DNA of 64,000 nt, taken from contig OZ004615.1 in NCBI GenBank assembly GCA_963924565.1, positions 6,634,001 to 6,698,000 on the forward strand, read 5' to 3'. The position numbers and the translations under genes are program-made. The DNA is from Ascidiella aspersa (Eukaryota). The notes beneath the pieces are model-generated. The model saw nothing but the letters and a program-made list of their open reading frames with translations. It was not told the DNA's origin and did no database searches. How positions within the stretch are numbered: the stretch's first letter is position 1; each line of letters begins with the position of its first letter. This document shows positions 33,147-58,400 of the stretch, piece by piece.

Positions 33147-34424
33147 ATTAAAACAAATATGACATATTGAACAGTAACATAATTATGTGATGTGCAAGTT
33201 TTATGGTCTGCGTGAGATTCACACCATACGAAAATGTTTTAGCTGTTATGAAAAAGATCGTGTCATTTACCAAATTCCATTTTAACTACTTCTGCGAATG
33301 ATATTTAAAACAACCTGCCAAGTGACATGTTTCTTTGTTCAGTAAACCAAATTAAGCCGCTCTGGTGACAACAAAGCGGACTGCCTTCGGAGAAATTCGA
33401 TTTATTTTAAAAACGAGCCAAGCGACACGACGAGCCGCAAACTAAAACAACATGTGAACTGGAGCTTCGCCGAAAAGTTGAAGCAAAGTGCAATAGCATT
33501 GCGGGCAAAAGGGCATAAAGCATGTACCAACGGCCAACGGGGTAAACTTATAATGCCAATTTTAAGCAATAAGCGGGACAGCTGAACAGCAATTGATTGC
33601 TGGGAACTGTCTTCTTTCGCAAGCGACATTAACGAGTGAAGCTTGAAGAAACGCGATGTATTACCTTCGATATATAGACATTTAACTCGGCGTTAAACCT
33701 TTGAATCGTAGCGGAACTTTGTCAAGATGAAGCACTGAAGGCGAAATTCATAACGGAGATTGCGCCACGTCAATTCTGTGCGTTTTAACGCTGAACAAGG
33801 GACAAGGTAAGACTCCGAAATAAAATACGAGAAAAAACAAACCAAGATTTATTCTTTGTGTATGTCCAACGTTTTTAGAAATCCGTTTTTAGGCTTTACA
33901 AAACTGTTCTAAACACGTGTGAGTCATTTAGCATTACACGACTGGGAAAATATTCAATTCTGAAAATTTTAATTATGTAAATCAACAAACAAGACCAGTA
34001 GTGTTGAGGCCCACTCTTTCATTAGCCGAATAGAATTTGCAAACTTGCAACCAAAGCTTAAAAATATATATTGTCATCTGCCTTTTTGTCTGCTATTGTG
34101 TTTTGTGTTACATTTCCCTCGATAAAAGTCGTTTTCGCCCATACAGGCAAGGCAGAATGTTTGCACCAGGCCAAAACTTGTTTCCTTGTAATACCTGGGT
34201 CATGGAAAAAATAAAATTACACAATGGCTTAAAGAGGTTTTACCCGTATGCTGTCCAATGTCGGGTAGCTAAACAATGGAGCCCCCTAGCGGGCGGTGTA
34301 CGCAAGATGATAAGCCGCGCGGTGTCGCAACGTAACTCCTGAACCACATCTCTCATTTCGCGCGTCAAACAACAAAGGCACTGCATTGTACAGAAACGGC
34401 AAGCGGCGGCGTTCCTAATCCCGG

Positions 34425-37400
34425 CTAAATGACCATCTCGCCGTGGAGGACCTTTTTCTTGACGTAGCGGAGGACCACCAAACGGAGGACCTTGGTGTAG
34501 CGGCTCTCGCCCTCAAAGAAAGTCCCGCTGGCGCCTGCGACGAGACTAGGGTCGATTCCTGTCCTCCGCCTCTGTTAAAAACAGTCGCCAATGTGAGAGG
34601 GATGCATGTCCTAACGGAGTAGTTAAATTGGTAAACCGCATTTTTTCCGATGGCACATCACATCAACAGAGATATATATGGTTATTATTAAGGATCAATC
34701 GATTGAATTAGTGCGAAATAGCGATAATGACGAGTAACTACATTTAAAACCTATGAATCTTAAAAAGCTTGGCGGGATCGGATGCTTAAACAAGCGCCTT
34801 TGGGTGTTTTATTTGCAAAGCGTTTTAACAGGTTAATAAGGCGTTACTTCAGTGTTTATTACCCAAAATTGGATATCGCCGTTTGATTTAATAGGGTCGC
34901 TGACTGCAGTAGATTTTTTATAGTTAAATTTTTTGAGATTGGTTATGATCAAGATTTCTTTCAAATTAAAAAAAGAAAAGCTTCGCGGTTATACTTAAAC
35001 GATTTATTTTGGGGTCGCAGGTCGCAGCGAAAAAAACAGAAACACGACTTTAGATGAAATGAGCTTACTATTCAAAGATCGTACTAGATATGTTAACCAT
35101 AAATTGCATATTTATGGTGCCATTAAAAAACGCAATTTCCAATTTTGCTTTGACATTTTTGCAAGACAAAATCAATGAAGAAACGGATTACTTTGCTTAT
35201 GCGTATCGTTAAACATTTAACGGCGTTGCATTACCGGGCAAACGAAGGTGAAAAAAGTGATTTTCTCTGTGGCTAAAAAAACCTTAATTTTTTTGAGTAG
35301 CAAATCGATTGCCCGGCACAGATAATAGGGAACCTGATAGTTAGGTCACTGCCCAATATTGTGCCTCAAAATATAGCTATAGTCTATCCAACGTTTATGT
35401 GGCACTATTTTAGTAGCAACATAGAACTACACAGGCCCAAATTTGCGAACCAGGTGAATGTGAACTTTTTTAGAAGAAAATCTATTCCCTGCACAGATAA
35501 TGGGGAACTTTACGTCCAGTCACTGCCAAAATAAAAGGCCACTATTCGATTCGCGTTTAAGTGAGATTATTTCAGCAACATCAAAAAAAAACCCAAGGGT
35601 CAAGGTTTGCGAACCAGGTGGATGTGATTCTCGCCGTTGGCGGCCACCAGGTCTTGCGAAGTGGGATGGTTGATCCTGTAAACTCTTCCCGACATCCTGC
35701 GGAACCAGGACTCGATCTTGGAGAGGAGCTTGCGGATCGATTTCCACGTGGGTAGAAGATTCATCGGAGGAGGGCAGTTAATTTCGTTCCGGATGAACTT
35801 AAGCCAGAGCTGCGTCCTTAAAAGCGAAATTCTATGTTTATGTGCGCCCGCTAAAGTGTTGTGCCGTGTATTTTTGGTAAGTTTTAAGTTTGGTTGTAAT
35901 ACGAGTTTTCCATCTTCATTTGAATAGGTTGGATTTTTTACGCGAAAAATTTCCTTTATTAGTTCGAATGGGGTAAACTTTACTTTTACCTTTAATTTAG
36001 GAGACCTGACGCGTAAGGCACCCAAATATTGCCCCCTAAGGGCGCAATCCCTCGGTTAAGAACCACTGCTGTAACTTATGGACAAACATTGCTATCAAAA
36101 TTACATTGTCTGACTTTTTCACTTTTAATGTAGTTGTGTGGACGAAATAGCATTTAACTTGTTTAAACGAAAGTATCAGGAAATATAATACTTATTTACA
36201 TTGGAGCAAAGATTTGACAAGGGTATAAATCATTTTCCGTCTGTTTTTACACTTTTTTGTCGAATAGAAAATAACAATTGGCGACAACAAATGGGAGGAC
36301 ATCAAAATTGTGTCTATACTTCAAACAGTATTTCGATTGTTTTAACTGGATTACTTCAAAACAAAGGCGTATACTTAAACTCTATGGAAAGCGAAACGCC
36401 TCTTAAATCACTCGTTGTAGATTTCCATAAAGCGACACCGATTGGCCAAACTACCTGTGGAATTTCCATTCTCTCTCCGAGTCATCGTGTGTCTTCTGGA
36501 AGCTGTTGCTCATCATGGCGATAAGCATGTTCACCAGCAATATAATGGCGCCGAAATGGTAAAGGCCGATGATAATACCTCCGGCCTATACAGGTTTGAA
36601 GCCACGTGTCAAGCAAAGTTCTAAGTTTTTTTCTTATTAAACAAAGCAGATTTGCCAATTTGCGGTAAGGCGTTCATGGTTGTTAAATGTATTTTACTTG
36701 TTGTACTGTTAGATACATTTAAATTAAATAGCTTGGCATGTGGGGCGGTAACGTTTACTTACATTAGTTACTTACTTACTTGCTAACAGACTTACTTACA
36801 TTATTTTATAAAATTGTTAGTCATTTGAAACAAGATCAAAAATGCACAGCCTAAACACTCTTTGGGTATTCCAAACGTTAGTTAAACGAGCCACACAAGC
36901 AAACGAATGTTATGATTCTTTGTGTTTCGTTCATGCGGCGTGCAGCAGGCAAATCAATACGATTTGATGCGATATTTCAATGTAAAAGGACAGTTGATCC
37001 TGACAATTGATCAAGGGTAATTAGTAAATATTGTCCATCGAAAGCAAAGTTTCGACAAACGCAGTAACTGCTGGGCATGGTAATAAAAATAAGACCACGC
37101 GGAAATTAATTCGGAAGGAATCCATATTATATAGTCCATAAGGTAACCAAAACGCAACTCAATGCATCAGCAAATGTAGACCAAGTCGTTGTACCAAAGC
37201 CGCAACAAAAACAGCAATAAAATATTCATACGAGACATTAGGAAGAAACCCGGTGCTGTCATTTCGGACAGCCGATCCCCCGTCAAGGGATTCAATTTAA
37301 AAAGCTATGTCTAGCATCCTTTATGGTGGTTTACAATTTCGGAAGTACACCCAAAGCAAGAGCACGCTTCGGCTGGATATCAGCAATGTCGTATCTCAGT

Positions 37401-40400
37401 CATCAGCAGTTGGATATGTTCGATATCTAGCACGTATATGCAACTCAGCAGACAAAACAGAATGAGCTTTCGGACTGGATTCACAGTCCTTTGCTGTGCT
37501 CGAGTTTTAACGTCTGTTTCAGCCAGAGGTTCGATCAACGAAAAAGCAAAAAAATATTTATATTTGAGCCAGCAAAACTTAACAAAATAAAAGCAAAACG
37601 CAAGTATAATGCTGCAATTCGACGGCAAAACGATAGCAATAAAATAACCAGTCACATTTCTGTTTTCAGTGTCGCAGCCCTTGGGCAAAACAAAATCGCG
37701 TCAAGACACAAAATGGCGCCCGATTTACTGACCACTTCCTGCATGATGAAGGTTTCCCGGCAATTCTCGACCGGATACCAGGCCTGCGGCTCCCCATACC
37801 CAAATAGGGTCCAGAAGAAACCGTTCATTGTGGTCGAGAGTTTAGTCATCTCGCCAGACGACGACACATTAAAGTCTGCGCACATTTTTTGCTTAAGTTT
37901 AGGCCGCCGTTAATTCTGTTGGCCTTAGTTTTATTGCTCTTCATCTAACTGGTGAACTTATAGTAGGCCGTGGATTTGTCGATGATAAGATACATTATTG
38001 GCAAAATTCATCATCTCGACCATAATGACCGTTAAGACCGTACGAATTGTGTTGTGAAATTCCGTATATACAATTCCAGTCAAAGATTAGACAAAAAAGA
38101 GTGAGCGCATAATATAAAATACTGGTATGATATATTTAAAGTCTGTTTCTTGGGCCACCAACTTAATTGTGTGGTCTAGTGGAGAACGCCAACGTTACTT
38201 CCCAGATAAATTATGTCAGACTTATTTGGTTACTTACAACAAATAGTATTATCGTGTATAATTTAAATATAATAAAAATCCTTAAAACAAAACTGAAAGC
38301 ATCGCAGTGGTGCCTAAGACCACCTGACGAGTAATGCACAATATATAAAAAGATAAATACCTCTCTGCTGTAAATATAAAAAAAACACAATGCACCCGCC
38401 TGTGCAACAGCTAAAAGTCCGTATCACTTGTATACAACAACATGCAAGAGCAGGGCAAACTTAACAAAACGTAGTATCCCTACATTCATTCCCGCAGCCT
38501 TTGAATAAATCACAACAGCGATCCTGCCACCAAATATTAACCGAACCTTGTTTGTTAGTCACCTCACATATACACAAGAAAACACAAAGCGCAATAATGT
38601 ATACCGTTATGCCACCGACGTACAAAAATGAAACCGCAGCAACGGCAGGTTAAGACAACCCGAAATTAACAGAAGCCAACAAACGTGTTAGTCACCGCCC
38701 AACAACTGAAACAATTAAGTAGAGCACGGGTGTCAATAAAAAGGAGTAGTTTTTCTCAATTAAGCACGCTAATTGCATTAATAGATTTTAATAAATTTAC
38801 AAATTACCAGTCGATTTAAGTCAATTTACGTTCTTATCTTCTGCAAATATGCTTTTGCGACTCGAATCGTAGAAAGCTTAAACGTGGTCCCCCGAAATGT
38901 AATAGGTTAAAATATATTTTGAAAATAAATTTAAATTGAATCTAAACTCAATTAAACTTGGGCTTTCTTAATAACAATGCAGTTGTTAGCAGAAAAAAGT
39001 TTGTTACTTCATTTGAACTTTACACACCCAATGTCCGAAGCGCCTCTTTTGTTTCAATTAATACAAATTAAGTGCTCTAAGTAAGTAATTAAATTAGCAC
39101 CCCTGTTTCTGCGTTTTTATGTTAAAGCCACCAGAACGCCACAGGCAAAACCAAGTCAGTAGCGACACCGTCTGGCTAACAGCGACACCGAGTGACCAAC
39201 CGCCTCCTGCAAGACCAACTTTTCGGGACAGTTGTCGATCGGATACCAGGCGTCCGGATGGCCGTAGCCGAACAGGGTCCAAAAGAAACCACCCATGGCG
39301 GCCAGAATCGACGCCATTTCCTCCGAAATTGGGTTGGTGAAGTCTTAACGTGCGAAGGAAAGTCGTGTCAGACAAGCTTTTGTGAAAGTTCTCGAGCGGA
39401 TTGCGGTAATGCGATGATTATATAGATAACTTTGGTTTGCATTGCGGCCAGGTAAAACGCGTTAAAAGTTTATGTGCACCTTAAATACTTGATTTTGATG
39501 CAAGCATAGTGCCTTGTTTGTCCCAGAGGGCAAGCTAGCAGTTTCATGTAGTTACGCATAAAGACAGGAGCAGATAATTGTGAGGGCACCGTGTTTTAAA
39601 TGCCGAAAGAAATGTGCAAACTATACTATTTATTTGCCAATAATATAGGGAATCGGCTAAACCGAATTTTCAGAATAGAAATAACCTATAGATTTGTTAT
39701 ATGCTGGAGAAAAAGCAAACACCACACCAGACTGCCGCTGAAGTATGGAGCTAAGAAATTTGACATGAATAAACAAGGTTAGTTGATAAGGTATATGTCA
39801 ATGTCAGTCACACTGCAACAATTAGTATCATTCGGGCTTGGGTAATTCGACATCATATTGCTGCTGTAAAAATAAGAGAATAAATCAGATTAATATCAAT
39901 GTGCATTTTTATACAATTTCGCAACTAAGCACGTCGTTAGTAAGCCGCCGTGAACTCTTTTTAGTCTTTCGTGGCGCGGTAAATCAAGTGATACAGTGAG
40001 GTTTTTATGAAGGGTGAATTTTATGAAGGGCACACGCAGAAACGTTTGCCAGCGCTTTGTCATTAGTGGAAAGCTGTAGTGCTGTCAAACAAGGATAGTG
40101 TGCTGACCACTTCGTCAAGCATGTTCTTCTCCGGGCAGTTATCAATGGTGTACCACTGTTGTGGGCTGCCGTAGCCGAAGAGCGTCCAAAACATGCCGGA
40201 CAGCGCCCCTTCGAAGCTCGTCATGGCCTGCGACTTGGGCGTGTTGGCTGGAAGTGCATTATCACCGGTCAGGTTAACTCTAGGTGCCGCTATACACGCG
40301 CGCACGCACAGGCACAGGCACACACACGCACGCACGCACGCACGTACGGGTACGCACAGCCACGCACACGCACGCAAACGCACAAATACGCAAACGCACA

Positions 40401-43400
40401 AACACGCACACAAACACTAACTACCAAATGTACAGATCCAGATAGACCAATAGACACATGTCGATTGTGCTAGTCACTTTGTCAAATGTGATCAGTTATG
40501 TTAAAAGAAGCAAACAGTTAAAGTAAGATTATTGTACAGTGCGACTACTCTAGGTTATAGCAGACGACGAAAGGGGTTTAAACTCAACTTTATGACCAAT
40601 TCCTATGAATACAACTAAAAATGCCTCAGAAACGGCAACGAGTACGATTCAATCAGTTGTACCCATATGATTTGAGTATTAGTTTGTTTTAAAGTATATT
40701 TTGCGTCTGGTATGACGCGCATTTATGTCGTCTTCCTGTAGAAAAGGAAAACCTACCAAAGTTAGATTGGGTAAGTTTTCAGCTAAAAGTTTGTACCTAC
40801 CAAAGTTAGATTGGGTAAGTTAGCTAATGCAAATCAAACATCTAAGCAAGCCGTCAATCAGTTGATTTTTGATTCGGTTACACGAGATTTACAACTATAT
40901 TCTACACAAACACACACGCGAAACGTCAACTGCCAGAATCGGCACACGGTCACCAACCCAAATGGTAAAGGTCATTTTTTCGGGGCAGTTGGGAAAGCCG
41001 ATGGACTTGGCGGCATCCCAGTAACCAAACAGGGTCCAAAACATGGAACTAAGCGCCTCGAAAATGTTGGTGAGCTTCAGCGACGACGGATTCTCATCTG
41101 GTGATCGACAAATTGAGGTTTGCTGACTAAAATCTTTTTTATAAACTTTAGGACGCAACTTAGTATCGTGCCCTTTTGATGAAATAAATCCTGGACGAAA
41201 TGGCGCGGGCTTTACGGAGTGCTTTACTTTCTATACGCTACTTATATAGTTAAAAATCACTCTATAATATTCACTGCTTTGGATGGGGAATTTTTTACAA
41301 TTTTGAAATAGCCCGACCATCGATTTTGGCTCAATTATACGTGTCGAGTTTTCAGTTTAGGATATAGCGTGCTTTGTCGAATAAAAAATCAAAACGCCAT
41401 AGTATAATGATTGAGAGGTTTCGTAAAATGCTATATATTTAACAAAAAACTATAACTAATCAAAATAGTGTTCTTAAAATATAAGAATTACATATAAATT
41501 TAAGTTTTGTGCCAGGAAAGTTATCCTACCAGCGCTCTAACAAAATTTTTCGCTGGTGGTTTGAATGTGTTAATGTATGACCAAGTGTCCATGACACCGT
41601 TATGACATCAAGCGATGTGAAATGATGATAAAAAATAAAATAATTTTATGTTGGGGAAATGTGGTTTATGAAAATTCAATAGAATGAAGCTTGATAATGA
41701 ATTGCAAAGTCAAAAAGGTCGAATATATCGACATATTTAAGACATTTCGATACGAGCTTGTATCGTCTTAAATTATTGTTAAAATTCATTATCAAGCTAC
41801 ATTACAGATTCGTGCATATGTACTCAATAGAATGACCCATCACAAACACAAATGTCTCCTGATATTTTTATGCATAGAGGCCCACGGTTGTTATCTAACC
41901 AGCTCGTTCAAGAAGTACTTGCTCTTGCAGTTTTCGGTAAAGATCCATTTAAGCGGTTCGCCGTAGCCGAAAAGCGACCAAAACATGCCCAAAAGGCTGC
42001 CCAGCCACGAGGTTATCTGCATTGATTCCTCGTCGTCGAAGTCTGTCATCGCGTCAAAGTATCAGGCTCGATTAGTGGTCAGCGTTTTAACGTTTATCCG
42101 GCCCAGTTCAAAATTAAAGCTAAGGGTTTGGTTAACAACTTAAGTGCTGTGCAGTTTCCCGTATTGAATATTGAATACAGTTAGCTTTCTAAGCATTTAG
42201 TTAAATAGTATAGGGCGGGGGTGGGCAACCTATGACCCGTGAGCTAGATTCGGACCGCCAACGCAAATCCTATTTTACAAACTGGACACGAGGCCATTCC
42301 TCATAATTTTTTGCTTTCAACTCGTTAAAAGCTTTTTTTTTGCAATTTGCGCAGTCTCGCTCCCATATCGAGTGTAAATGGCAAACCTCCCTAGTTTTAT
42401 CCCTGATTAACAGTCGTTGGGATTGTTACAAGATGCGTAAAGTCTACACAGTTAAAATTTGACAGCCCGCAGAGACCTTTCTGAGTTTGGTTTCGGCACG
42501 CGACAAGAAAGTTGTTGCCCACCCCTAATATAGGGTATAAGATCAAATATATATCTCGAAACATTTGCTTTTAAACCTGTCTTTCAAGTCTAATTATTTT
42601 TTTATAGTCTTTATGATAGAAACTGTGCGTGAAAATAGATGGATACTTTAATATAATTAGGTTTACAAATTAACAGGGTAATTATGTTTAATAATTAATA
42701 AAATAAATTAAACAACAATTGAGGCAATTTGCACTGAGCTAAAACAATTAGCCACTATTACCTTTACAAGACACACATGGGCGCTCGGATACCTTCATTT
42801 GACTCCAATCAGCCGTGTATGCTGGTAGAAGGTCAAGGGTCTGAAAACAATTCAAGATATTCAAACAACCGTTAACCTTAGCCTACTACAACTAGTCCAA
42901 CGCTACAGCCATGATCCTAAACTGGTAATAATATATTTACACTTACACAAGTTGAAAAATTCTTTCAATTTTAAGAATATTCTTGCTATCTTGGAGTGCT
43001 TAAATAACTTAGTAAATAAGTTTAAGCGCACCCTAATAATTTGTATGATTGGCATATAGGTCCTTTCTTGGTACAATATCTTACTTAAGTTGAACATAAT
43101 TTTGTCAAATTGGTAAACAACCTTTTTATATACCTCTAATTGTAAGAGCTTTAGCATTTTTAACAAGGTTTGTTAACATAAAAATTGCTATTTTAATCAT
43201 GTTTTATCGACATATTTATGATCATGATCGGTTGTAAAAGGGATCGCAATCATGATAATAACTATCATTATAGTCGTGATAATGATAAACTCATGATTAT
43301 CGTAATGAATATAATCATAATCACAATTTTCGTAATCCTGTTCACGATATTCATCTCCTCCTTTGTGATCATCACGATTATCGTTGTGATCATCACGATT

Positions 43401-46400
43401 AATGTGATATTTTGTGATCATCACGATTAATGTGATCATAACAGTTATCTGATCAGAAATCATGATCACATCGCCGTAATCTTTACGTGATCACGCAATT
43501 ATCGTGATAGCGATCATCAACGTGATCATTGTGATCGTGATCATAACAATCATATAATAATCATCATCACCGTAGTGATCAGAATGACGATTACAATCTT
43601 CATGATCATGTTCTGGATATTTATCACCGTCGTTGTGCTCATCACGATAATCATGATAGCAATAATCAAGGTGATCGTTATCGCGCACTTACGACGTTGC
43701 ACTCCTTGGGGCTGTTGCATGAGCAGTTCTTGTCGAAGGCGTAAGGCGTGTAGAGCTCCGTGATGCCGCTTCCGAAGGCCAGAAAGACGATGCAGAAGAT
43801 GACTGAGAAGCGAAAAGCGTCGTGCAGCATCAGATCAAGGGACACCTGGGAGAGTGGAACAATTCTTGAAGCGGAATTCTATTTAAGCTTATGTTAACAT
43901 GTTTCTTTGCAATATAAGCCTTTATTGGTTCCAACCTGCAGCGGCCCGAAAGTCCTTTCGGCTCTTAGCAGTTCCATGATCCTCATGTGGATAAGGATGT
44001 ACGAGATGGCGATGCAGATGTCGGACAAGGGCAGGGGGTCAAACATGCCGCCATGCCAGAACACCTTGGAGTCTTCCGGCACTGTGACGTCACAAATAAA
44101 ACAATAATTGTACAAACGAGGGCTACCAGCGAATGTTAGATAATAGAGTTCTTCGCGCAGAGCTTTCTAAAGTTATGATCAACAACCTAAACCACTTAAA
44201 TAAAAAGAAACGAACGTGAATGACGTGTTTACGTAAATAACAAAGGAAAGTCAATATATAGCCCATATAGAGTCTGCCAGGCATAGAGCATAAATTATAT
44301 CAAAAAAATGTATACGTCCACCGTTTTTAATTTATAGTGCCTTAATTAAAAAAATAGTGAATTACCCACATTGTGTTTCCAACTCCAATAACCTACTAGC
44401 TCGCAAACAGTACACAATTTTTCTACGGAGTCTTATGATTTTACGTTATAGATAGTCCGAATTAACAGCGGGCCTTTATCAACATATTACTTTATAACAG
44501 AGCTGTGCCACTTCATACAAACCGTAACATGATTTGTAAATGTGTAATAACGTTTTACAAAGGTGATGGTAATAAGGACATCAAAGAGCTTGCACAGTTC
44601 CTAAAATATATTTTCAATAACGTACTTTTTTCCGCCGTAGCGATGTGAATGAGTCTAAGCACCATGTAAGCTGTGTAGAGAATGATAGTGGTCATGTCGT
44701 TCCAGTTCCAAATGTCCGTCATGTATTCACGCAACCCCTTCATCAAACATTAAGCACCGTAATGAAAGTGAAAAAATGCATACGAATTTATTGATTAATT
44801 ACCGGTATCAATATTATTTTATACAAATTTATAAATAAAAACATAAATACTGTTTAAGCCAGTGGTCGGCAAACTGTGGGCCACAGAACCATTTTTAGTG
44901 GGCCGCGAGTTACTTTTTAATAGCTTAGTGTTATCATGTAGTTGTGGGCCGCGTGATAGCCGTACGTTCATTGCGCTTTATTTTAAAATTTCGTGTGACT
45001 TAGAAATTATATGTTGTCTCAGCGTGGTTCAGACCCACGTGCCAAATTTGGTCCTGAAAGCCGGTCGAACTATATTTTTTTCCAACTTAAACTATATGTA
45101 AACGCAAAATGTTCGCGCCTCGCGCGTATATTCTTCTTTTATAGTATGTTTTGCTTGACATGGCACTGTTTTGGGCCTCAAGGCGCCGTGTAATATTTCA
45201 CTTTAAAAACAGTTATCCTGAATCCACCACTGTTTTCGTATTGGTTTTACATAGTGGCCTTCAATACCTCTGAAAAGAGTACTTTGGGCCGCGACAAAAA
45301 ATGTTTGCCGACCATTGGTTTAGGTTGCAAATAATTCCTAAACATTTAACGTGAAGTAACAGGCCCAGCGTCAATCCAACAGCGTCCGGATATTTTTAAT
45401 GTTACCTATAGATTAGGTGCTGTCTTAACCTACATACAATAAACTGCCTTCTAACAAATTACCTAGGAGAGTTTCGATGCAGAATATAGCACGTTACTAA
45501 TCGCACGCTAAAAGTCCCAGTATCACGCCTCCCGAAAACCCTGACGTTCGTCATCGGCTAATGTATCGGGCAAAACAACGTTAAAACCAAAGTACGCTGC
45601 ATCTTGAAAAACTCTGAAGCATATCGTGCGAGACCATTGACGGTCCCATCTAACCTAACGCGTTTTGACACCCACTTTGTCTGGAAGTGGGCAGTCAATT
45701 GGAAAAGCGTGGTCATGAGGATTTTGCTCAGACTAATTGCCTTTGCCAAAAATTTGGTACTACAGATTATTAACATAAAAATATGTTTACGACCAAAATT
45801 GGGCTCCACTTCTTCCGCTCTGACTTTTACTCAATTTGCAGGGAAACTAGAAGAGCTATAAGCTGCAACCATTGGAACATATGGGAAGTAATAACAGACA
45901 AAGGGGCGTTTACCTGATGATAAATCTCTCTGGATTCCTGGATAAACTTCCCGACCACCCAAAGGTACGCAACGGAAAGCAATGGCGATATCTGCAAAAC
46001 AAAGTATTTTTTTTAAATAAATTACATATAACTGACTCGGGCTAGTCCTTACCGAATTTTGACTGCGGTTAAATGAGATAAAAAAATTATTTGTCAAATA
46101 TGGCGATTTGAAACTAAGTACCGGTACCTCGAGAGTTTCTAAAAGTTTTTAATACACCTTTTTTGTATGACGGAACAGCAAACAGACAAGGAATGCGAGA
46201 CTTGCATCCATCCAATAAAAACCTGACCGTAATCGTAATTATCAAGTTTCAAGTTATGACTGATGTGACTATATTTTGTGTAGAAAATAAGCCGCGATTT
46301 GTTTTTTGGGGTTGTTTTGACCCAATTGTATTAGTTCTGACTCGGTAACAATTTTCACCTATACTTGCTTACTACACTATAAACTTAAACTCTTGTAGTT

Positions 46401-49400
46401 AACGATCCACGGGCAAAGCTTGCACCTTGATCACGCATCACGTAACTGGGGGTGAAACGTTGGTCTAGTTGCCAGAAGGTAAATGAGCCGCGAAAACCAC
46501 CGGAAAAGGGTTAAACGTTTTTTTAATTTACTTTTTTGAAGTTAAGGGTTGTATTACAGCGGAGACTTTGGTGTTCGTCAATACCTTTTGTTTTTCCATC
46601 GGCTAACCTTTAGCCAATGAGTAATAGACTAACATCTCGAACGCAGCTATTGGTTGTTACTACAGCTGCGTTTCTAGACGTAAGTCGCTGGAGTACCTAG
46701 GCCTAGATGACTTGCGTTATAATCCGTTAATTATTGGGGCAAATCATGATCGGTTCACACAGCTATGTGTATATCAACCAAGAAAGCGCTTCAGAAATTA
46801 CGCGTGTCCCTAGACTTTTTTTCTACTACGAATTGCACCTTACCAACCTATATGTCTTTAAAAATAGGAAGCACAGACTGCTTTCGAAGTACACTGGCCA
46901 AAGAAAACTGAAGCTGTGTAAAACGTATGACCGGATTCGGGCGCTTTTAGAAATGGCCATGAAAATTAGCAGTGTAAACACGTCATTAGCCCTGCTGTTT
47001 TCCTTATACGTATTCACCCTGATAATAAGATTTTACACAACAACCCTCACTAGGGATGTACGATAACATCAGATCGGAACCGATACCAACACCAAGTGAT
47101 ACATCTATTCTCCTATATTCTTCAAAACCAAATTAATTTGTGCATTCTAGTTGTTTTGTAATTGAATATGAAGTTTTCCATATTTTAAAGATTCTTTTGT
47201 TGATATCAAAATAAAAGCGAAGATAAATATGCTTTCTAACCCTTGAGTGATTTTCAGCCTCATAACCTGGATAACATCATCCTAATTCAAATATATCAAA
47301 TCTGCTTATTTGACCATAGCAGTAATTTGGAACCTGTTTAAAATATCGGTTATCGGTATCGAGATAAAATAGATCGTTCATCCCTATAGAGCTCACCCCT
47401 CCGTCTGCTCCCTTGAAGAAGTCGTACTGCATCATGATGGTGTTGGTGAGGAGCATGGCGATGAAGACGACCTCCGAGATGACCCAGCACCAGAACTTCA
47501 CCGTCGGATTCTGCATCACTTTGCCCAGAGCCGACTTGGGAGCCATGAGAAGAGCCAGACTCAGGATCGGGAATAGGAATCCGAGCAGGATCTAAACCAG
47601 GTGTTATTAAACTTTTTGTTAACGCGAACCCTTAAAAAAATATAGTCTCGGTTTGAGTAAACCTAGGGATGACGTCATAACACAAATAGATTTGAGAAAG
47701 CTGAGGTTTTCGGTCGAATTGATGCGTCAGCTTCAGAGTTGAGTCTAAATACATTGAACGAGAAGGCGTCAGAGTATTTTGCAAATAATCTCTTTTCTTT
47801 AAAAAAGTATTTATGGTTTCAAAATATACACTAAGATTTCAATTAGGCCTTCATAGACCACCTCGCCCCCTAAAAGGGGGTCGACGGTCCCCTATTTGGG
47901 AAGCCCTGATTGAAGCGAATGGAGCGACGACGACGTTAGCAGGAGCAAATAAAGGGCGTACAAGTATATATATTATGGAAAATTTTGCAATGTTGTAAAG
48001 CTTATATGTCAAATTCAAGCCGTATTTAAAATTGCTACCTCGATCCCAAATGCTTAGCATCAATTAAATAGAAACATAAAAAAATATTTTTTAGAGCTCA
48101 ATGAAATTTAAAATACAGTTTTGTTTGTATTAATTTGTTTGTATTATTAAATAATGTCAAAGAGTTATAAAGTCTATCGTTGTATTTAAATGTATGTTGA
48201 TTTTACATTTAATATCGTCGTCCTCAAGTCTTATATGACATTACATTTTCTTGTGTAAACGGTTATTTTCTGAGCAGCTATCCAACGCAATTTAAAATAA
48301 TGATCAGTTCTTAACCGTGACTGTTATAAAATATTGGGATCGTCATTGCAGTCCGACGATATAGAAAAAGTCATGAAACGTAAGCCACGGCTAAACAAGA
48401 ATCTGAAAGTTAAACCCAGGTTACTTTAAATTTATTTAGAGTTATGTCAAGCACACAAGCTAATGTACAGGAATTTTAAAGGTGAAATTAGAGTTCACTT
48501 CTGCAAACTGAGACAGTCGCTTATAATTGCTTTCAGGGTTGTTTCAAACGCGCCCTGCTTAATTCACAATCACTTATTCATCGCGTTTATGTGTCGGATG
48601 AACGGTTTGAATTGCGTTACGCTCTTTTATCCATAATTTATTAAGGATCTTTGTTACTCTTTTGGTTGCCGCTTGACTCAAAATATAAGATACTCAAACC
48701 TTTTTGTCAAAGTCATGACATATGTTGACCTGAATCGGCATCAATTCTATTTAAATATTATATCGTGGAGGTTTTCTTTTAGTTTTTTTAAAAACAACGT
48801 TTGCTTGTTGATGAAAATAACGTAAACATCTCGTCACAGGGTTTAATTTGTCATTAACAGTTTATTTTGTACAATAGGTTTGTAAAGCAAAAACACGCTT
48901 TATTTATTTAGGATCTTGAAGACATCTCATTTCTATTTTGTATTTAAAAATATAATTTTACCTGTAGTATGAAAAATTGTTTTCCCCTGCATCATATTTG
49001 ATTACTATACAATAATTCCTGAAGCAACACCCCAAAGCGGCCGACATTTAAATTGTTCATTTTTGTTGGCTAATATTTTTATATTGCATACAATCAGCAT
49101 GCAATAGCTATAGCCATTATGCAATGAATAATTCGTCTCACCTGTATCACGGTCGCCTTTATTCCTTTAAGACGTCGAAACAGCTTTCCTTTCTGAATGT
49201 AGATGAGCGCGAGTTGCGAATTGTCCGAGGTCACGAAATCTTTCATTTCGTACTTTACCGCCTGAAACGCGAAGTTTACGTTAATAGGTTTCAAAATAAT
49301 CACCGTAGCAAAAGCGTTAAGGTAGAATTTTAACCAGTTCGCAAGCTATGCATAAAAGCAGATGTCAAAATCAGTCGATGGGCTTTTGTATTTTACAGTA

Positions 49401-52400
49401 ATTTTTTTATGGATATAAATAAGCTCTATAGGTTAGCAGGTTTATAATGGACTTCAAATTGGCCCGAATCAAAATGAAGTCAAACGGCCGACGTATTTTT
49501 CTTAACTTGTAATTGTAAAACTTAAAAACTTCCAATATAAAATTTGGTGATGGTTTGATGATATAAACAGATGACATTTCTTAGGAAACTGAAGAACACA
49601 AGATTTGTGGTTATAATGAAATGCAAAACTGTCCTGTGAATGTTAGAAAATGACTCCTGTAAATGTTAGAAACAGATTCAAGTCGTTCAGCAAGCAAAAT
49701 CGAAAAGTGATTGATTCAATATTTGATTTATCTTAATTTAGACAAATCAAAGACTGAGATTTTAAAACCGAGGATACTACGAAAAACACAAATCTGATGA
49801 TTTAAATCGCTAAACGTTCAGCACGATTTACTTTTTCGATTGGTTTCAGATAGTGACGTATCTTCTGACGTCGCTCTGGCGCGATGCTTTCTGTTTCGTC
49901 ATCGAGCACCGAAACGTCTTCAATGTCATCGTCAAGGTCATACTGCATGAGATCGGCCAATTCGCTGGCGGACCGGACTTCCTGTGAGTAAGGTGAACAT
50001 AAAAACGTTAAAACAAATCGTTTTTAGATTAACCAATTGTCTGTAAAATCATTGACGAAATTACGTCAGTCCAAGTCAAGTCATTTTCAACAAACAGCTC
50101 CTTCGAGACGAAATCTTAATGTAGCAAGATAACTACAAGTCCGGTAAGTATAGCACAAGAATCAAGTTAAACATTTAAAACTTAAATAACTGGCCGTATT
50201 TTACTTCACAAACACTGAAAAAGCAAATAGCAAACAAAATGTTTTGTGCGTAAATTTGAGGAAAGTATCCAAACTTTACGAAAAATGTAATTAAACAAAC
50301 CGCTTGGGTCAATTAATTTGGCGAAGTGATCTAATTCCAAGTCAAGTCATTTGTCCAGTCCATGAATATTATCAAAATCTCATTCTACAGCTCACATTGA
50401 TTACGCTTCGCCGTTTATCTGCAACTGACTTTGCTAGCAAAGTAACAGAATAATCAAACTAGATTGTGATCCTCAGCTATTCAAAAACGGCCACCTATTT
50501 TCGGTTCCCGCGCCCCCAACTAAAGTCCTTTGTGGGAGGCAGACTCCTAAACCTCTAAATCGCATCTACTTACCACTCTCCGTCCAGTCTAAAAATTTGA
50601 AAATTATACGATGTGTACTTTTTCTAGGAAGCTCAGGACTTACAAAAAGTTCTGAAACATACTAAAGTTGACCAATGCAACTCAAAAAACAATCGCAACA
50701 AAAACAAGAGATGTCCCTAAAATAAATTTAATAAAAAGGGTAATATAACGGCCCATATAAAAATGGTTTGAGAATCGTTGCGCTGCAATCTTGAACGAAC
50801 CTCGAGAAGTTGAATGGCGAAGGTCTCGCACTGCTGCGACATCTTAAGGTAGGCTTCCTCTACTTCGCGTTCGCGCTGCCCGAGCTGGTGGAGTTCGTTG
50901 AAGAGGTCCATAGCGGCAATCAGTGGATCCCACGACATGCCCTTTTCACTGGAGAGGCATAGACGCGAGTTAAAATAGGACAGTCTATAGACCAGTGATT
51001 TCAAAATTGTGTGCAGCGGACACTAGTGTGCCTCGAGAAATTGTTAAGTGTGCCGCGAAACTTTTTGTAATTTCGGAAAAAGAGTATGTCTTACCCATAG
51101 GCAAACATTTAGACATAAATTCGCACAATAAATTCAAAATATCGAGACATTTATTAATATAGCGTTTTAGTTTGTTGTGTGTTAAGGGTGATAAAATTAC
51201 TCTATTGTTGTTCTGTTAAAAGTGTGCCGCGAAATATTAAGTTTTTTTTTAGTGTGCAGCAAGCCAAAGATGTTTGGAAACCCCTGGTATAGACACAAGA
51301 ACCGGGCTAGCGAACTTCGTTGGTATTGTTGACAGGGAACAGAAAACGGAATTGAGTTTTGCTTGCAAACAGTGGAGTTTAAGTCAGGAAATAAGGTTGC
51401 GTCTGTTTCTATTTCATTTATTCATATTAGGATATTCTGCTTTCATTGGAGACATCTATTAAACAATTAAAGGGTCTGACCTTATTTACTAGCTTTGCTA
51501 GACTAGTCCGCTGCTTTTGTTTATATTTTTTTGCAATAACTGCAGATTGTCGCACATAAGGTTCTGTTAGCAGCAGTGCAATTAAACGCTTCTGTTTATA
51601 AGTTAACTCCCAAATATTGCATCTGTTAACATCCTGTTCACATATAAAAACTATACTTTCGCCATGAAGCCATATAGATGCTTTTTAACGTCGAAAAGTA
51701 ATGAGTACTTAACATTTTCGTTTTAAGCAACTTTTTAAAAACTTAATATACGCAGGTATACACGTTGAGAACCTAACCATTAAGTTTAAGAATACACAAA
51801 GTGACCACTTAAACCTTTGTTTAACCTATATTTCCACACGAGTGTGTTTAGTTAGTTTTAAGTCTTACTTTAGCAGTACCAAAATTCTCGCTTACTTAAA
51901 CATGAGAAGCATAAACGAAGGACTTGCTCTCGCCCTGTAATGAAGAAGACGCTCCATGACCGCATCCCAGGAGTAGGGATCGAATCCTTCGTCCAAGATG
52001 AACTCATTCTCGCTAAACGTCAGACGATGCGAGTATCTGTTTTTTAAGGAGATGTTAGAAATGACGCAATTTAGTTTAAATTTTAGAAAAATAGCGGGTC
52101 AAACAAAGGCCCCGGTCAAATCTTCGGCCATACCAAATCGCGTTTTTTGTGAACTTAACAGAAAAAAATATGAATCCTGAGAACAAAAAAAAAACACTTT
52201 TAGCAATCATGTAAACAAGCCCTCTATACAAACAGAGAGCCTAACACAGTTTAATCAAAAAGATTGTTTCTCAAAAATGTTATGCTTTTGATAATGAAAC
52301 CTATGTTATCTTAAAAGTTTAGATAATTTTGCTGTCGGCAGCTTTAAAACTTTTTACAATTTACATAAGGCAAAATAACCTTGTGAAAAGAAGACAGAAA

Positions 52401-55400
52401 TCTCATTTAGTGCAAATTTAAACGAACAAGCGAACTGGGGTCATGTCAACTTCAGAGGTACTTACATAAAACGAGGCTTCATGTCTAAACTATTACAGTT
52501 AACACTCGACCGGCGTCATTACACAACTGTGTAAAAATGATAGGTGAGCCGTTAATGACATGATATCTATATTTGATCACATCATCTTTCGAAGCTAAGT
52601 TAAACAGCAAACGAGCCCATTAATGTTTGGACCAAGTGGCCTAATCCATTACACACATAGGTGTTCTTAAATCTAGAAAAATCTGAAATCTAGAAAAAAC
52701 TAGAAATAAAAGTAACACTTTTGGCCAAGATGAATCGTTGATTTTAGACACTTTTTTACAAACTGAAATTAGAAGCAACTCATTAATTAGCTTAAACATC
52801 TACGTTGACTTGTAAAATATTATTTGAGGAAAGACACCTTCTTAAACACGAAATTCGTAAATCGAAATGTACTGTGATTTTTCTTACCTAGACCTGGGCA
52901 AACTATGGCCGGCGGTCCGCAGCTCCTTTTCATAAAACTTTTTTGGCAAAAACGGGCTTCACATTTATTTTCTTAATTTCAGAATACTTATACATAACTC
53001 TTGTAAGGCATCCTCACCTACTGATATTTACATTTTTTTTAAGGAATCACGCGTTGTATTATGTGTTTTTGAGAGCCCTTTTTTGACACGGCCCGCCAAC
53101 ACATTTTCTGTTTACCATTAGGGTTTCTCTCTGAGAATGTTTCGACGGGAATTCCCGGGATTTCCCACAAAAAAACGATCTTTTATCTCGGGATTTTTTA
53201 TAATCCCGGTTATTCGGCATTATAGCAAAACTCAAAAAAACTTGTCGTTTTTGACTGATGTAAAGAAAAAAATATTACCAATTCTGTTGAAGTCGTTGCC
53301 TGAAGTTTTTTATTTGCGCTTACCAGCGGAAAAAAGTGATTAAATTTATTTTACCAATAAAAATGCGGAGCTAAATAAAGTAAATTTAGACATTATAATG
53401 ACCTAATTAAGCACGAAAAGTCAAATAATTTCGTCGGGATTCCCGGGAATTTTCGAATTTCAATCCCGTTTCTCGGGAGTGAAAAAATCCGGAAAAAAAA
53501 CATGCGGCTCGCTGTCTCAAACAATTGCCAGCCCCTGGTATTACCTGTAGAGCAGACACAGGATCTTGTAGTTGTTCTTGTGCGCGGCCATCATAAACGG
53601 GGTAAGACCGGGTTCGAAGGGTGACGTTGTCCCCGGTACCACCTGTATCGAGGTCTGGGGGTCCTTTTCCAGCAGGAGCTCGATCGTTTCCACGAACTCG
53701 CACTGGATGGCGTAAAAGAGCGCGTCGCCGAGTTTTATTCCCTCTAAACATAAATTAAAAGAATGATTTAAAATGATTTTATTTATGGTGCATAAGGAAA
53801 TGTGGTATTCAATGTTACTCGATCAAAAAGTGTAAACTGTCATGGCACAAAAATTATTTATTTTTTATTCTTAAATTCGTTTTATTCACGTGTTTTCCTG
53901 ACCAAACAAATAGTTGGTGGGACCCCCGAGCAGAACAAAGACATACACTGTTGTATACAAAAAAAGTATTTGCTTAACAGACAAGTTAATTCAAAAATCT
54001 CTAAGTTTGGGTGGCATTGAAAGCGTGACAACATTAAGCAATAACTCCAATGTTGGGCACTATTCGTAAACCTACTCAATTGGCAAACAGAAAGGTTGTT
54101 TGCGTGTTTCGTGGGAATACAAGCCAGCTGATTTATCGCCACATTTCACAAGTCAAACTCAGCACTGACACCGCGTTTCGGGTTCACTACAAGTCGCTGA
54201 ACCAGGTTGGTTAAGCTGTGAAGCGTTTTGCCACCGATGCTGCCTTAGTCGAATTCGATGCTTTGTAAACAAGACAGATCATCAGATATTGGGGGTGTTT
54301 TTTTCTTGGCAGTTCGTAACTAGGAAACAGCGGCGTACAGAGGAGGGTTATAAACCAACTAATACAGTGTGTTGGCTGTTTTAAAGCTCAAAGGTGCCAA
54401 AAAGTGTTATTGGTGATTAGGGATTTTTGAGCGCAGACGATGTGTGTCGTTTGAAATAGGACTCCTTTGACTGCTCTCCGTCAACTCTCCTTCTTTCGCC
54501 ACCAGCTTTTTATCTTTTCTATATAAGCCAGTGGTTCCTTAACAGGCTGTTTTAGGGCCCATACGTCCTCTAAAACAGTACACTATACAGACAGTTTTAT
54601 AATGAATTGTCCGTTGTCTCTCTAAAATTATATTTTGTTTTGCCAACTTTAACTATATAAATACAGTTTTTGTCGACATCCTTTTTAATACGTTTTGTCC
54701 TAGTTAAGAAAAATTCTTATCGGCGCTATTGAGGCATGTTACGCCGGGTGACTCTTAAACACTATAAAGTGCAACTTCTTTACATAATAATTGCTGCGAT
54801 ATCCACTTATCAGGGTTGTTTAATTAGGTTGAACAAACGTTGACATTGTACTACCAAATTGAAGATCTTTACATAACCTATACAAACCTTCGTAGTCTCG
54901 GATTGAGGCAAACTATAGCATATAACAAACTTTTCCGCGAGCTCGTTTCAATAAGCGGCGTTTGACGGAGCGTTCCGGTGGCCAATTAGCGGTCGTGAAA
55001 GCGCGCAATCATCACGTAGGTTTATATGTTGTTTTTTGCGAAAGTCGCCGCAAAAACATTCTTTCAAGGTAAGGTAATAGCTCGAGCTAGCTTCGCATGA
55101 TCAACGTTGCGTGGCCTCAATTAGCGGCGCTCCTAGTGCATCTTTGGGGTTGTGTGTGATAATTACTGTACAGACGCCATATGCAGTTAAACTGGAGAAC
55201 GTGCAAAACGATTTTGCAGCAGCGAAACTATTTTTACCGAAAAATAGTACGGAGAAATTAAACCCAAATTTTATATTTCAAATTTGGCCTGCGGTTATAC
55301 TCTTATTTTTACCTTATTTTTTTCATTCAACATTTAGGTAATTTGAAATCAAGAACGACAGCTATACAACGTAAAAGCAACTTAACAGGTTAACGTGAAA

Positions 55401-58400
55401 GAAAATTACAACTTAATATACCGTAGTGAACATGGACATTTCCCTAATCAATTTAATCTATATATTAGCTTGACTTTAGAAATGAAAGACTTACAACCGG
55501 ATAAAACATTACCAATTTTGCTCAAAATATTGCTTCTTCATAACAGATAACAATATACAGTATAGAAAATCTGGCACAACTCCTTTTCATATTTGTTAAC
55601 CTTTAATGATAAAAAGTTACAACCGGATAAAAAGTCTCAATGTTGCCTAAAATTATCGCTTTTCATCGTCAAAACAAGATACTAAGTAAATAAAATCTGG
55701 CAGAAGAAAAACTATTTTTTATATTTTAGCTAAACTAAAGTCATAGAAGGTTTACAACCGGACAAAACAGTTAAACGCCCACTTAAAACAAGAAAGGCTC
55801 GTCTTGGCCAACCTACCGACTTGGTCGAGTAGGAACTTGACCACGTCCACGTGATTGTTGATGGTAGCCAGGCTGAGCGCGGTGCGATCCAGCGAATCGA
55901 CGCAGTTTACGTTGAGGTAGAACAGGTAGTAGGTCTGCTCCTCGAACAACTTCTCCAGGCCCTCGATGTCGCCGTTGGCCGAGAAGTGCAGGAAGTCCAG
56001 CTCGTGGCTGTTGAGGCCACCTGAAAAATACAAAAACGCTCTGGAAACCAGGACTGCGTAGTAGGAGTCGGAATTGGGCTTGGGACTTGGGACTCGGGGA
56101 CGGCAAAAAACTTTGCTAGAGTCGGATTAGGGACTCGAAACTGAGAATCCAGGGAGTCGGCTAAGTTTGCTGGATTTGGACTCGGGACTCTAGACTTAAA
56201 GGAGTCGCTAAAGTTTGCTGAAGTCATACTCGGGACTCAGGACTAGAGTAATACTACTTCCCGAGGTGCTCATATGCAGTTAGCAAACTTCGAAACTGAC
56301 AAACTGTAAATTGTAAAGGTGGAATATGCATATGGTGGAATATTTTCGACCCATGTTTAGTGGGTGGATGATTGAAAAACACCCTTATGAGTGGATTGCT
56401 GAGTATTCACCTTATTTTAGTTGAGTAAATGGATGAAACACAGGATGTTAAGCGAAATCGGATCTGGGACTCGACAAAATCGCACATTGGCCGGAGTCGG
56501 ACTCGGAATCCGGTTCAATTTTTTGGCTGGAGTCGGACTCGGCAGTTTTTTTTTAAACCGACTCTATTTTAGGACTCCGCAGTCGTGCTTGAAACTACAC
56601 ATACAGTAGCGAAAAACGTTTTTCAGTCCTGTAAACAAGTTACCTTTAGAAGACTAAAGTTCCGAGCGTGTCTCGTGCAAAATTTAAGTCCAACTTATTT
56701 TTGTCACAAACTAAGATACAAGTGCCTAGTCAACATGAATGAACACTGATAGAAAAAAATTAAACGATAACAGCGTTAACGGTAACCAACTCCAGTCAGG
56801 AGCAGTTATCTCGCTCGGTAGGGATCATGATGTTCGTCAGGTCATACCCGATCGTCATTCAGCTACTCGTCGAAACCAATCAAAGTTAAAAAGGATTGCA
56901 ACATGGAATGTACGAACCATGCATCAGAAAGGAAAAGTGGAAAATGTGATTATGGAGATGAAGAGGTTAAAAATTGATATTCTTGGCATATCTGAAATGA
57001 GATGGACAGACCAAGGCGAAATTACTAAACAAGGATTTAAAATCATATGGTCTGGAGGAAGCAAGCATGAGCGTGGCGTTGGTTTCATACTCGGAAATAA
57101 AACTGCTGAAAGTTTTATGGGATGCTTGGCTGTATCCGATAGAATCATTCTTCTTAAACTGAAAGGTCAGAGGACTAATCTCAACATTATACAGGTTTAT
57201 GCTCCTACTGAAAAAGCCCTGACGATGAGATTAGAACGTTCTACACACAACTGAATTTAGTTAAAAAGAAATGCAAACACGGTGAATTATAATTGTGATG
57301 GGAGATTTCAATGCAAAGGTGGGAAGAGGAAGAGACGGAGACATTGTTGGGGGTCATGGACTTGGCGATCGCAATGATCGTGGAGATTTGTTCGTGGATT
57401 GGTGTCGTATCAACGATCTCACTATAAGCAACACATGGTTTCAGAATCATCCACGCCGCATCTGGACATGGAAAACACCAGGAGACCAGACCAGAAATCA
57501 AATAGATTACATCACAATTTCAAGGCGCTTCAGGAATAGTGTTTTAAATGCAAAGACTTATCCAAGTGCTGACTGCTCGAGCGACCATGTACCTGTTGTC
57601 GCAAATATCTATACCAAACTAAAGATTTGTCGAAAACCGGTAAGAAAACTGCAATACAATGTTGCCGCCTGTCAAAATGCAAAATTAAAGGAAGTACTGA
57701 AACATGAAATGGGTAATGCACTGAAAAACCTGCATGACAAAAAACAGAGTTGGCCAGAAGACATATTCCAGGAAATCAAAACGTCACTGAGAATATTAAT
57801 GGAAAACAACCTTCCGAAAGTCCAGAGAGAGAACTTGCAAAGCTGGATGACAGATGAAATAAGAGGTTTACTGGAAAAAAGGCGCAGAACCAAAAGAAAT
57901 CTTAAGAAGTACAAGGAATTAGATAAGTGTATTAAATTAAAGCGCAACTCTGCTTATGAAGAATTTCTAAATCAAAAATGTCAAGAGGTAGATAAGCTTT
58001 TTAATATCAGCGCGAAAGAAGCTCACCAAATAATTAATCAGCTCAATGGAAAGAAGGAAAACTGGATAAAATCGGGCTGCGTGAAGAGTAAAACCGGAAA
58101 GATCTTGTTTCAAAAAGAGGAAATTAAAAATCGTTGGCGAGAATACACCCAGGAACTGTACAGGGATCCAACAAGAAACGCCCCACCAATTATGTTTAAA
58201 GAACCACTAACTGGGCCAGAAGTAATGAAATGTGAGGTTGAGAAAGCCCTGGCTAGCATGAAAAATGGAAAGGCGGTTGGTCCTGATGAAATTCCAATAG
58301 AAGTGTTGAAGGCTTTGGATGACATTGGAATCAATTTACTTACTTCTTATAAATAGCATTTACAACACTGGTCAAATTCCTCAAGACATGCGGAAGTCGA

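Follow-up and report, generated by a model that had tools for sequence, protein, structure and literature searches.

A TRPC-like gene with five tandem pore exons

The stretch analyzed here (the window) comprises 64,000 nucleotides (nt) of the ascidian Ascidiella aspersa (assembly GCA_963924565.1, contig OZ004615.1, positions 6,634,001 to 6,698,000), and all coordinates below are window positions. It contains, on the minus strand, the gene of an ankyrin-repeat TRPC-like channel (34422..61992) that carries five tandem exons, termed A to E, for the pore helix and selectivity filter. With any single pore exon, the gene is open for 782 to 783 codons, from an exon at 56020 to a stop near 34425; two additional 5' exons (60750-60662 and 61992-61800) stay in frame. 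Pfam Ank scores above the curated cut-off in two exons, in keeping with the N-terminal ankyrin repeats of TRPCs, and the six-transmembrane layout with an MFW/FFW pore helix and an EWKFHR TRP box is likewise that of a TRPC. TRP_2 (PF08344) stays below its cut-off in one exon (E 0.067), and this family is not listed for the ascidian orthologs. The host protein shares 78% identity with Phallusia CAB3267280.1, 69% with Ciona X1, 67% with Clavelina, 60% with Styela, and about 26% with vertebrate TRPC6/7. A quick tree of 29 proteins (midpoint root, vertebrate TRPC1/4/5 rows left out) places it in a clade with its ascidian orthologs and paralogs outside the canonical TRPCs (Shimodaira-Hasegawa-like approximate likelihood ratio test, 98); within this sampling, it is not an ortholog of any named vertebrate TRPC subfamily. 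The model of a relative, P0004 (not an isoform of the window; predicted local distance difference test score, 75), has only TRPC structures among the fold matches listed.

The array is framed by shared exons on the same strand. The S5 segment and the beginning of the Cys-rich turret are encoded at 43693..43845, the 79-nt turret exon (42762..42840) ends in phase 1 and supplies the donor to the array, and the exon for S6 and the TRP box (36455..36585) has a phase 0 acceptor. The turret exons of the orthologs likewise end in CxxCK/R. S6 lies outside the duplicated unit; its exon matches Pfam Ion_trans at E 9.6e-5, below the curated cut-off, and its closest PDB sequence matches are TRPC3/6, then TRPC5/4. 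Between these exons lie, all on the minus strand, exon A (41900..42042, 143 nt, filter FGYGE), which covers the turret end, pore helix, filter, and linker to S6; exon B (40958..41097, 140 nt, FGYWD), of a non-Gly type; exon C (40108..40247, 140 nt, FGYGS); exon D (39201..39343, 143 nt, FGYGH), which is nearest to E (65% DNA identity); and exon E (37733..37875, 143 nt, FGYGE). The filter Gly codons are found at 41968-41966 (A), 41026-41024 (B), 40176-40174 (C), 39269-39267 (D), and 37801-37799 (E). The longer motifs SLFGYGEP, TLFGYWDA, TLFGYGSP, TLFGYGHP, and TLFGYGEP (A to E) were re-read on the minus strand exactly as the initial annotation had given them. A Pfam scan of the five pore exons returned 0 families.

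All five exons are open, preceded by AG and followed by GT, and run from a phase 1 start to a phase 0 end; they are homologous, of like length (140 to 143 nt), and identical in phase, as expected of a mutually exclusive cluster from tandem duplication. Their donors (GTTAGA, GTTGGT, GTCAGC, GTTGGT, and GTCAGT, A to E) depart from the GTRAG donor consensus, from which alternative exons often deviate. On the sense strand, a UG-rich simple repeat (40294..40411, minus strand) lies shortly before the exon C acceptor; it is a candidate splicing element and could bind splicing regulators. The GC content at third codon positions (GC3) is 0.70 to 0.83 in the pore exons and 0.76 in the downstream shared exons, against a GC content of 0.33 to 0.42 in the flanking introns. 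Exon A, used as a query against the 308-Mb genome, returns these five matches only. The array is neither chance nor an assembly duplication: pairwise DNA identity among the exons is only 48 to 65%, and all five are covered by contigs from DNA run X1, which is possibly the source sample. Five separate genes are likewise ruled out: there is only one S5 exon and one S6 exon, and the latter matches the genome exactly at a single site.

In a frame test, any one of exons A to E yields a protein of 782 to 783 amino acids with a single terminal stop, whereas zero pore exons, or any of the eight multi-exon combinations tested (five pairs, ABC, ABCD, and ABCDE), lead to a premature stop. This excludes a single protein with several pores. 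Because only one exon at a time keeps the frame, the gene likely splices the five as mutually exclusive alternatives. As to the means of exclusion, no inverted repeat common to all pore exons, of the kind that would form a docking and selector element, was present among the 25 longest of 125 pairs; plain steric exclusion is unlikely because the introns between pore exons measure 710 to 1325 nt.

Each exon encodes about 47 residues, most of which vary (33 to 46% protein identity to A) around an invariant FW-LFGY core. Such breadth of variation would suit a reading in which the exons are mutually exclusive but selection acts on the extracellular surface, that is, the turret end, the pore-helix face, and the pore-to-S6 linker with its conserved Asn-Cys, for gating, lipid or ligand sensing, or assembly, the filter differences being secondary. 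Exons A and E, both FGYGE yet only 38% identical, point the same way, and there are precedents: pore-loop splicing is reported to alter pharmacology in TRPM3 (PMC9290681), and an extracellular loop and a disulfide to tune gating in TRPC5 (PMC6656536). However, the two positions after FGY also vary widely, with seven residues at +2 and eight at +3 from the filter Gly among 23 exons of the ascidian clade, and the +3 residue is described as facing the ion path in TRPC structures (PMC7565274). We consider selection on the surface rather unlikely as the principal explanation.

The array in other ascidians

The same exchange of pore exons is found in automatic RefSeq and database models of the orthologs. 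In Clavelina, XP_076822126-129 (X1 to X4) differ in the pore segment (FGYGS, FGYGT, FGYGT, and FGYRD, respectively); the filters of X1 and X2 are FGYGD and FGYDN in Ciona and FGYSQ and FGYGN in Styela. Skip forms with a frameshift at this junction are present among the models of Phallusia (P0014), Ciona (P0176 and P0178), and Styela (P0183 and P0185): in Phallusia CAB3267280.1, Ciona X4, and Styela X3, the turret exon runs into a frameshifted S6 exon, which is the skip product predicted for the host gene. The array is old, since the pore exon is swapped in Clavelina (four versions), Ciona (two), and Styela (two) and skip forms exist in three species; the sampled ascidians cover all three ascidian orders. 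We conclude that the array is genuine and conserved; its exchangeable filter is the main result.

When 1.84 billion proteins were searched with a profile built from the five exons, nine matched, namely, seven short open reading frames (ORFs) with one pore exon each and two long, spliced-looking proteins. A metagenome scan gave four loci, two of which (L011 and L012) hold the same tunicate-like ortholog with a single pore exon; the other two (L013 and L014) were dismissed as chance matches in unrelated GC-rich contigs. The copy number seen ranges from one (L012) through two (Ciona and Styela) and four (Clavelina) to five (host gene). In the exon tree, exon B groups with Clavelina X4, Styela X1, P0003, and P0007 (95/89), whereas Gly-type exons do not resolve into cross-species types. 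Both the range of copy number and this lack of resolved Gly types would fit copies that are largely redundant products of duplication, with one or two types (the Gly type and the B type) mattering and the others drifting. Exons that had drifted for so long should have decayed, though, and all five keep the frame, splice dinucleotides, phase, high GC3, and invariant core at 48 to 65% DNA identity, so that redundancy appears improbable.

The GYG motif and the outer-mouth residues

The initial annotation had called the filters K+/HCN-like. The GYG triplet is indeed present in four of the five window exons, and across the ascidian clade FGY is found in 23/23 exons and GYG in 17, the second Gly being replaced in the remaining six. 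For comparison, the best 120 of 4596 TRPC-like proteins, mostly from molluscs and rotifers with few vertebrates, were reduced to 115 canonical TRPCs by removal of four without a detectable TRP box and one with a gap. Here Gly at +2 (70/115) and Asp or Glu at +3 (90/115) are the majority states, and the commonest filter is FGRGE (34/115). The K+/HCN likeness thus reduces to the Tyr at +1, which one protein of the 115 shares (Tubulanus, FGYGD). In a wider set, FGYG occurs in 2 of 134 non-clade proteins, from the nemertean Tubulanus and the annelid Owenia, on separate branches. The annotation had proposed to ask how common FGYG is in invertebrate TRPCs, commonness being taken to speak against it; the motif proves rare, although not unique. 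Its comparison with a vertebrate LFWS(I/V)FGL is roughly right (TRPC4, FWSIFG; mouse TRPC6, FWAIFGLSE). Judged from the alignments, GYG is not a K+-channel filter but a clade-specific Tyr placed in the pattern F-G-x-G-[DE] that is usual for invertebrate TRPCs.

Position G-2, two residues ahead of the filter Gly, is Leu in 5/5 window exons and Leu, Met, Val, or Thr in 15, 4, 2, and 2 of the 23 clade exons, respectively. The Thr of K+ filters is found in those two clade exons and in none of the five window exons, and the Cys of HCN filters in none of the 23; the annotation was right to note the Leu and to refrain from claiming K+ selectivity. Against the PDB, the five-exon profile yields 12 matches with E<=10, each of them a TRPC4/5 chain and each weak (E 0.8 to 3.2); no K+, HCN, or CNG chain is among them, a 47-position profile being a weak search. 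These matches align the filter Gly to TRPC4 G577 and TRPC5 G581. In TRPC5, G581 is described as the filter constriction, with the pore helix running to 580 and the filter spanning 580-584 (PMC6656536), and in the P0004 model the pore helix reaches residue 395, which is G-2. K+ (TxGYG) and HCN (CIGYG) filters share G-Y-G at the outer pore with four of the five exons; GYG by itself is reported to be insufficient for K+ selectivity, the HCN Tyr and outer Gly turning away from the pore (PMC9614928). The ascidian filter differs from both in that it lacks Thr at G-2 in the window exons, follows residues that form part of a TRPC pore helix, and, across the clade, can do without the second Gly.

Two JGI records of relatives about 50% identical to the host protein, P0004 and P0011, read TTFGYGD, i.e., a full TxGYGD signature in a TRPC-like protein. 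A TRPC-like paralog in the same genome (L015:1317-1529, G000:C2, minus strand) and its Phallusia ortholog P0163 both read YWTLYGYGW; the paralog has one pore exon within the 9.9 kb examined. The genome holds further TRP paralogs: L007 (G000:C1:3082164-3085289) is TRPC-like, with 281 uninterrupted codons that span S4 through the TRP box and the filter FWAIFGQVD, L009 has FFALFGLIE, and L010 is TRPV-like.

The two TTFGYGD records, the TLYGYG of the paralog, and GYG in 17/23 clade exons could be taken to mean that the filter of the clade is K+-channel- or HCN-like and that some isoforms prefer K+. Against this stand the scarcity of Thr at G-2, the placement of the residues ahead of the filter Gly in the pore helix of TRPC5 (PMC6656536) and of the P0004 model, the restriction of the PDB matches to TRPC4/5, and the loss of the second Gly in 6/23 exons; we regard this reading as highly improbable. 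The K+/HCN resemblance is likely mostly incidental, and GYG is likely no sign of K+ selectivity, the P0004/P0011 pair being the one lead toward a K+-like reading.

The outer-mouth residue at +3 varies among exons A to E (Glu, Asp, Ser, His, and Glu), as the annotation had stated, and by numbering it aligns with TRPC5 N584. D621 of Drosophila TRP presumably lies likewise at G+3. TRPC5 N584D is reported to be about 5.7-fold more Ca2+ permeable than N584G and twice as permeable as the wild type; TRPC3 E630 occupies a similar position, with side chains facing the ion path, and D621 is the Ca2+ determinant in Drosophila TRP (PMC7565274). Because the variable residue falls on this site, permeation differences between isoforms are plausible, and a difference in Ca2+ permeability is a reasoned prediction. 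The 23 clade exons show eight residues at +3 (seven Asp, five Glu, four Ser, two Thr, two Asn, and one each of Gln, Ala, and His). B-type filters include FGYWD (B), FGYRD in Clavelina, FGYKD, FGYID, and FGYSQ in Styela, in which +2 is non-Gly and mostly followed by Asp. Exon B had been singled out as a Trp outlier; its non-Gly type does recur in Clavelina and Styela, but Trp itself occurs in 1/23 exons, and loss of the second Gly appears to be the recurring trait. pH sensing through the His of exon D, also suggested earlier, was set aside: His likewise occurs in 1/23 exons, and D-related exons carry Ser, Glu, or Asp.

Several other features of the window were recorded. A high-copy short element resembling a miniature inverted-repeat transposable element, with 21-nt terminal inverted repeats, lies between exons A and B (41683-41803), and a second high-copy repeat is found at about 42240-42500. 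A frameshifted element of the long interspersed nuclear element type, with endonuclease- and reverse-transcriptase-like ORFs identified by eye, occupies an intron of the TRPC gene (56739-59590, plus strand). Elongase-like exons at about 11389-30430 (plus strand) are convergent to the TRPC gene; their motif VHAIMYTYY, at about 26540-26570, we take to indicate a fatty-acid elongase of the ELOVL type. A 2640-bp near-perfect tandem duplication (19794-25073, 99.9% identity) reflects either a recent event or an assembly artifact.

Exon choice and comparison with known pore-exon systems

The reading we favor, with a probability of roughly 65%, is that the five tandem pore-helix/filter exons are likely mutually exclusive and likely produce channels that differ in Ca2+ permeability and are not K+ selective. 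It builds on the exon anatomy, the frame arithmetic, the isoform swapping in database models of three further ascidians, and the position of the variable residue, which aligns with TRPC5 N584. One pore exon would be chosen per transcript, and transcripts with none or two would undergo nonsense-mediated decay or encode truncated subunits. By analogy with TRPC5 N584D versus N584G, an acidic +3 residue (A, B, and E) may raise the Ca2+/Na+ permeability relative to that with Ser or His (C and D), and the bulk of the B-type +2 residue may reshape the outer mouth. Since the end of the turret and the linker between pore and S6 change with the exon as well, the isoforms may also diverge in gating or ligand sensing. 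In a homotetramer, the chosen exon would set all four pore loops, and coassembly of isoforms is possible, with 70 tetramer compositions from five subunit types.

Several points weigh against this reading. The isoform swaps of the orthologs come from database models, and the literature searched contains no electrophysiology of this clade. In about 6% of the raw RNA run X4 of this organism (two mappings), most reads fell on intronic repeats, a few lay near exon E and the intron preceding it, and none of the host gene's splice junctions exceeded the thresholds, a sample too shallow to be used as evidence. The array also appears dispensable, because the L012 ortholog has a single pore exon. In the exon tree, 11 of 20 inner branches are open, leaving Gly-type exons mostly without cross-species types, and the B-type group has long branches (Styela X1, 3.09; B, 1.7) and included a paralog in another exon tree. 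The +3 residue shifts even among D-related exons (D, His; L012, Ser; E, Glu; Ciona X1, Asp). Given this variability and the open forks, relaxed drift fits as well as tuning does.

A bolder version, which we consider a long shot, would make the one TRPC gene a pore library of ascidians, in which exon choice switches among Ca2+-rich pores, pores for monovalent ions only, and B-type pores that are narrowed or modulatory, with mixing in tetramers and with a TTFGYGD branch converged on a K+-type filter; if true, it would provide a natural series linking the selectivity of TRP and K+ channels. Whether a TRPC channel gives a chemical signal or merely depolarizes depends on its Ca2+ permeability, and here a chordate gene appears to offer as many as five naturally occurring filters on a common scaffold, in an array kept across ascidians. 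The array would be a ready-made experiment on how +2 and +3 set permeation and why GYG filters are or are not K+ selective. A literature search, outside which most subscription journals and supplements fell, found no published description of it, and the accessible part of a crayfish paper (PMC13483504) held nothing relevant to it. Automatic RefSeq isoforms of the orthologs do exist.

The canonical TRPC4/5 and TRPC3/6/7 channels share with the ascidian gene the ankyrin repeats, the LFW-type helix, the filter Gly and +3 position (G581/N584; E630, E687), and the EWKFxR box; the ascidian gene differs in its divergent clade, with about 26% identity to TRPC6/7, the Tyr at +1, and the alternative filters. 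TRPM3 pore splicing is said, in the title of Oberwinkler 2005, to change divalent selectivity. TRPM3 resembles the ascidian gene in that splicing of a TRP pore region alters pharmacology, but it does so by a 12-residue insertion through alternative splice sites, whereas duplicated filter exons are swapped here (PMC9290681). The closest parallel is NALCN, whose exons 15a/15b and 31a/31b are likewise tandem, mutually exclusive, and specific for a pore helix and filter with a changed filter residue; their functional difference is described as predicted, expression not having confirmed it (PMC3557258). NALCN has four domains, a pair of alternatives at each site, and a switch between Glu and Lys; the ascidian TRPC has up to five alternatives and, being homotetrameric, would change all four pore loops with one exon choice and could mix isoforms.

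Pore-coding exons also appear duplicated in protostome TRPC genes, as in the ascidian array. The TRPC models of Mytilus (P0148), Owenia (P0143), and Toxocara (P0170) contain two tandem pore motifs, which are probably misjoined alternative pore/S6 exons. In these genes, S6 belongs to the duplicated unit and the filters closely resemble one another (GLVD, GLID, and GLVG), whereas in the ascidian gene S6 is shared, the clade is another one, and the filter chemistry is varied; independent origins of the two arrays are likely. Together with NALCN and the protostome TRPC arrays, the ascidian gene suggests that duplication repeatedly targets pore exons.

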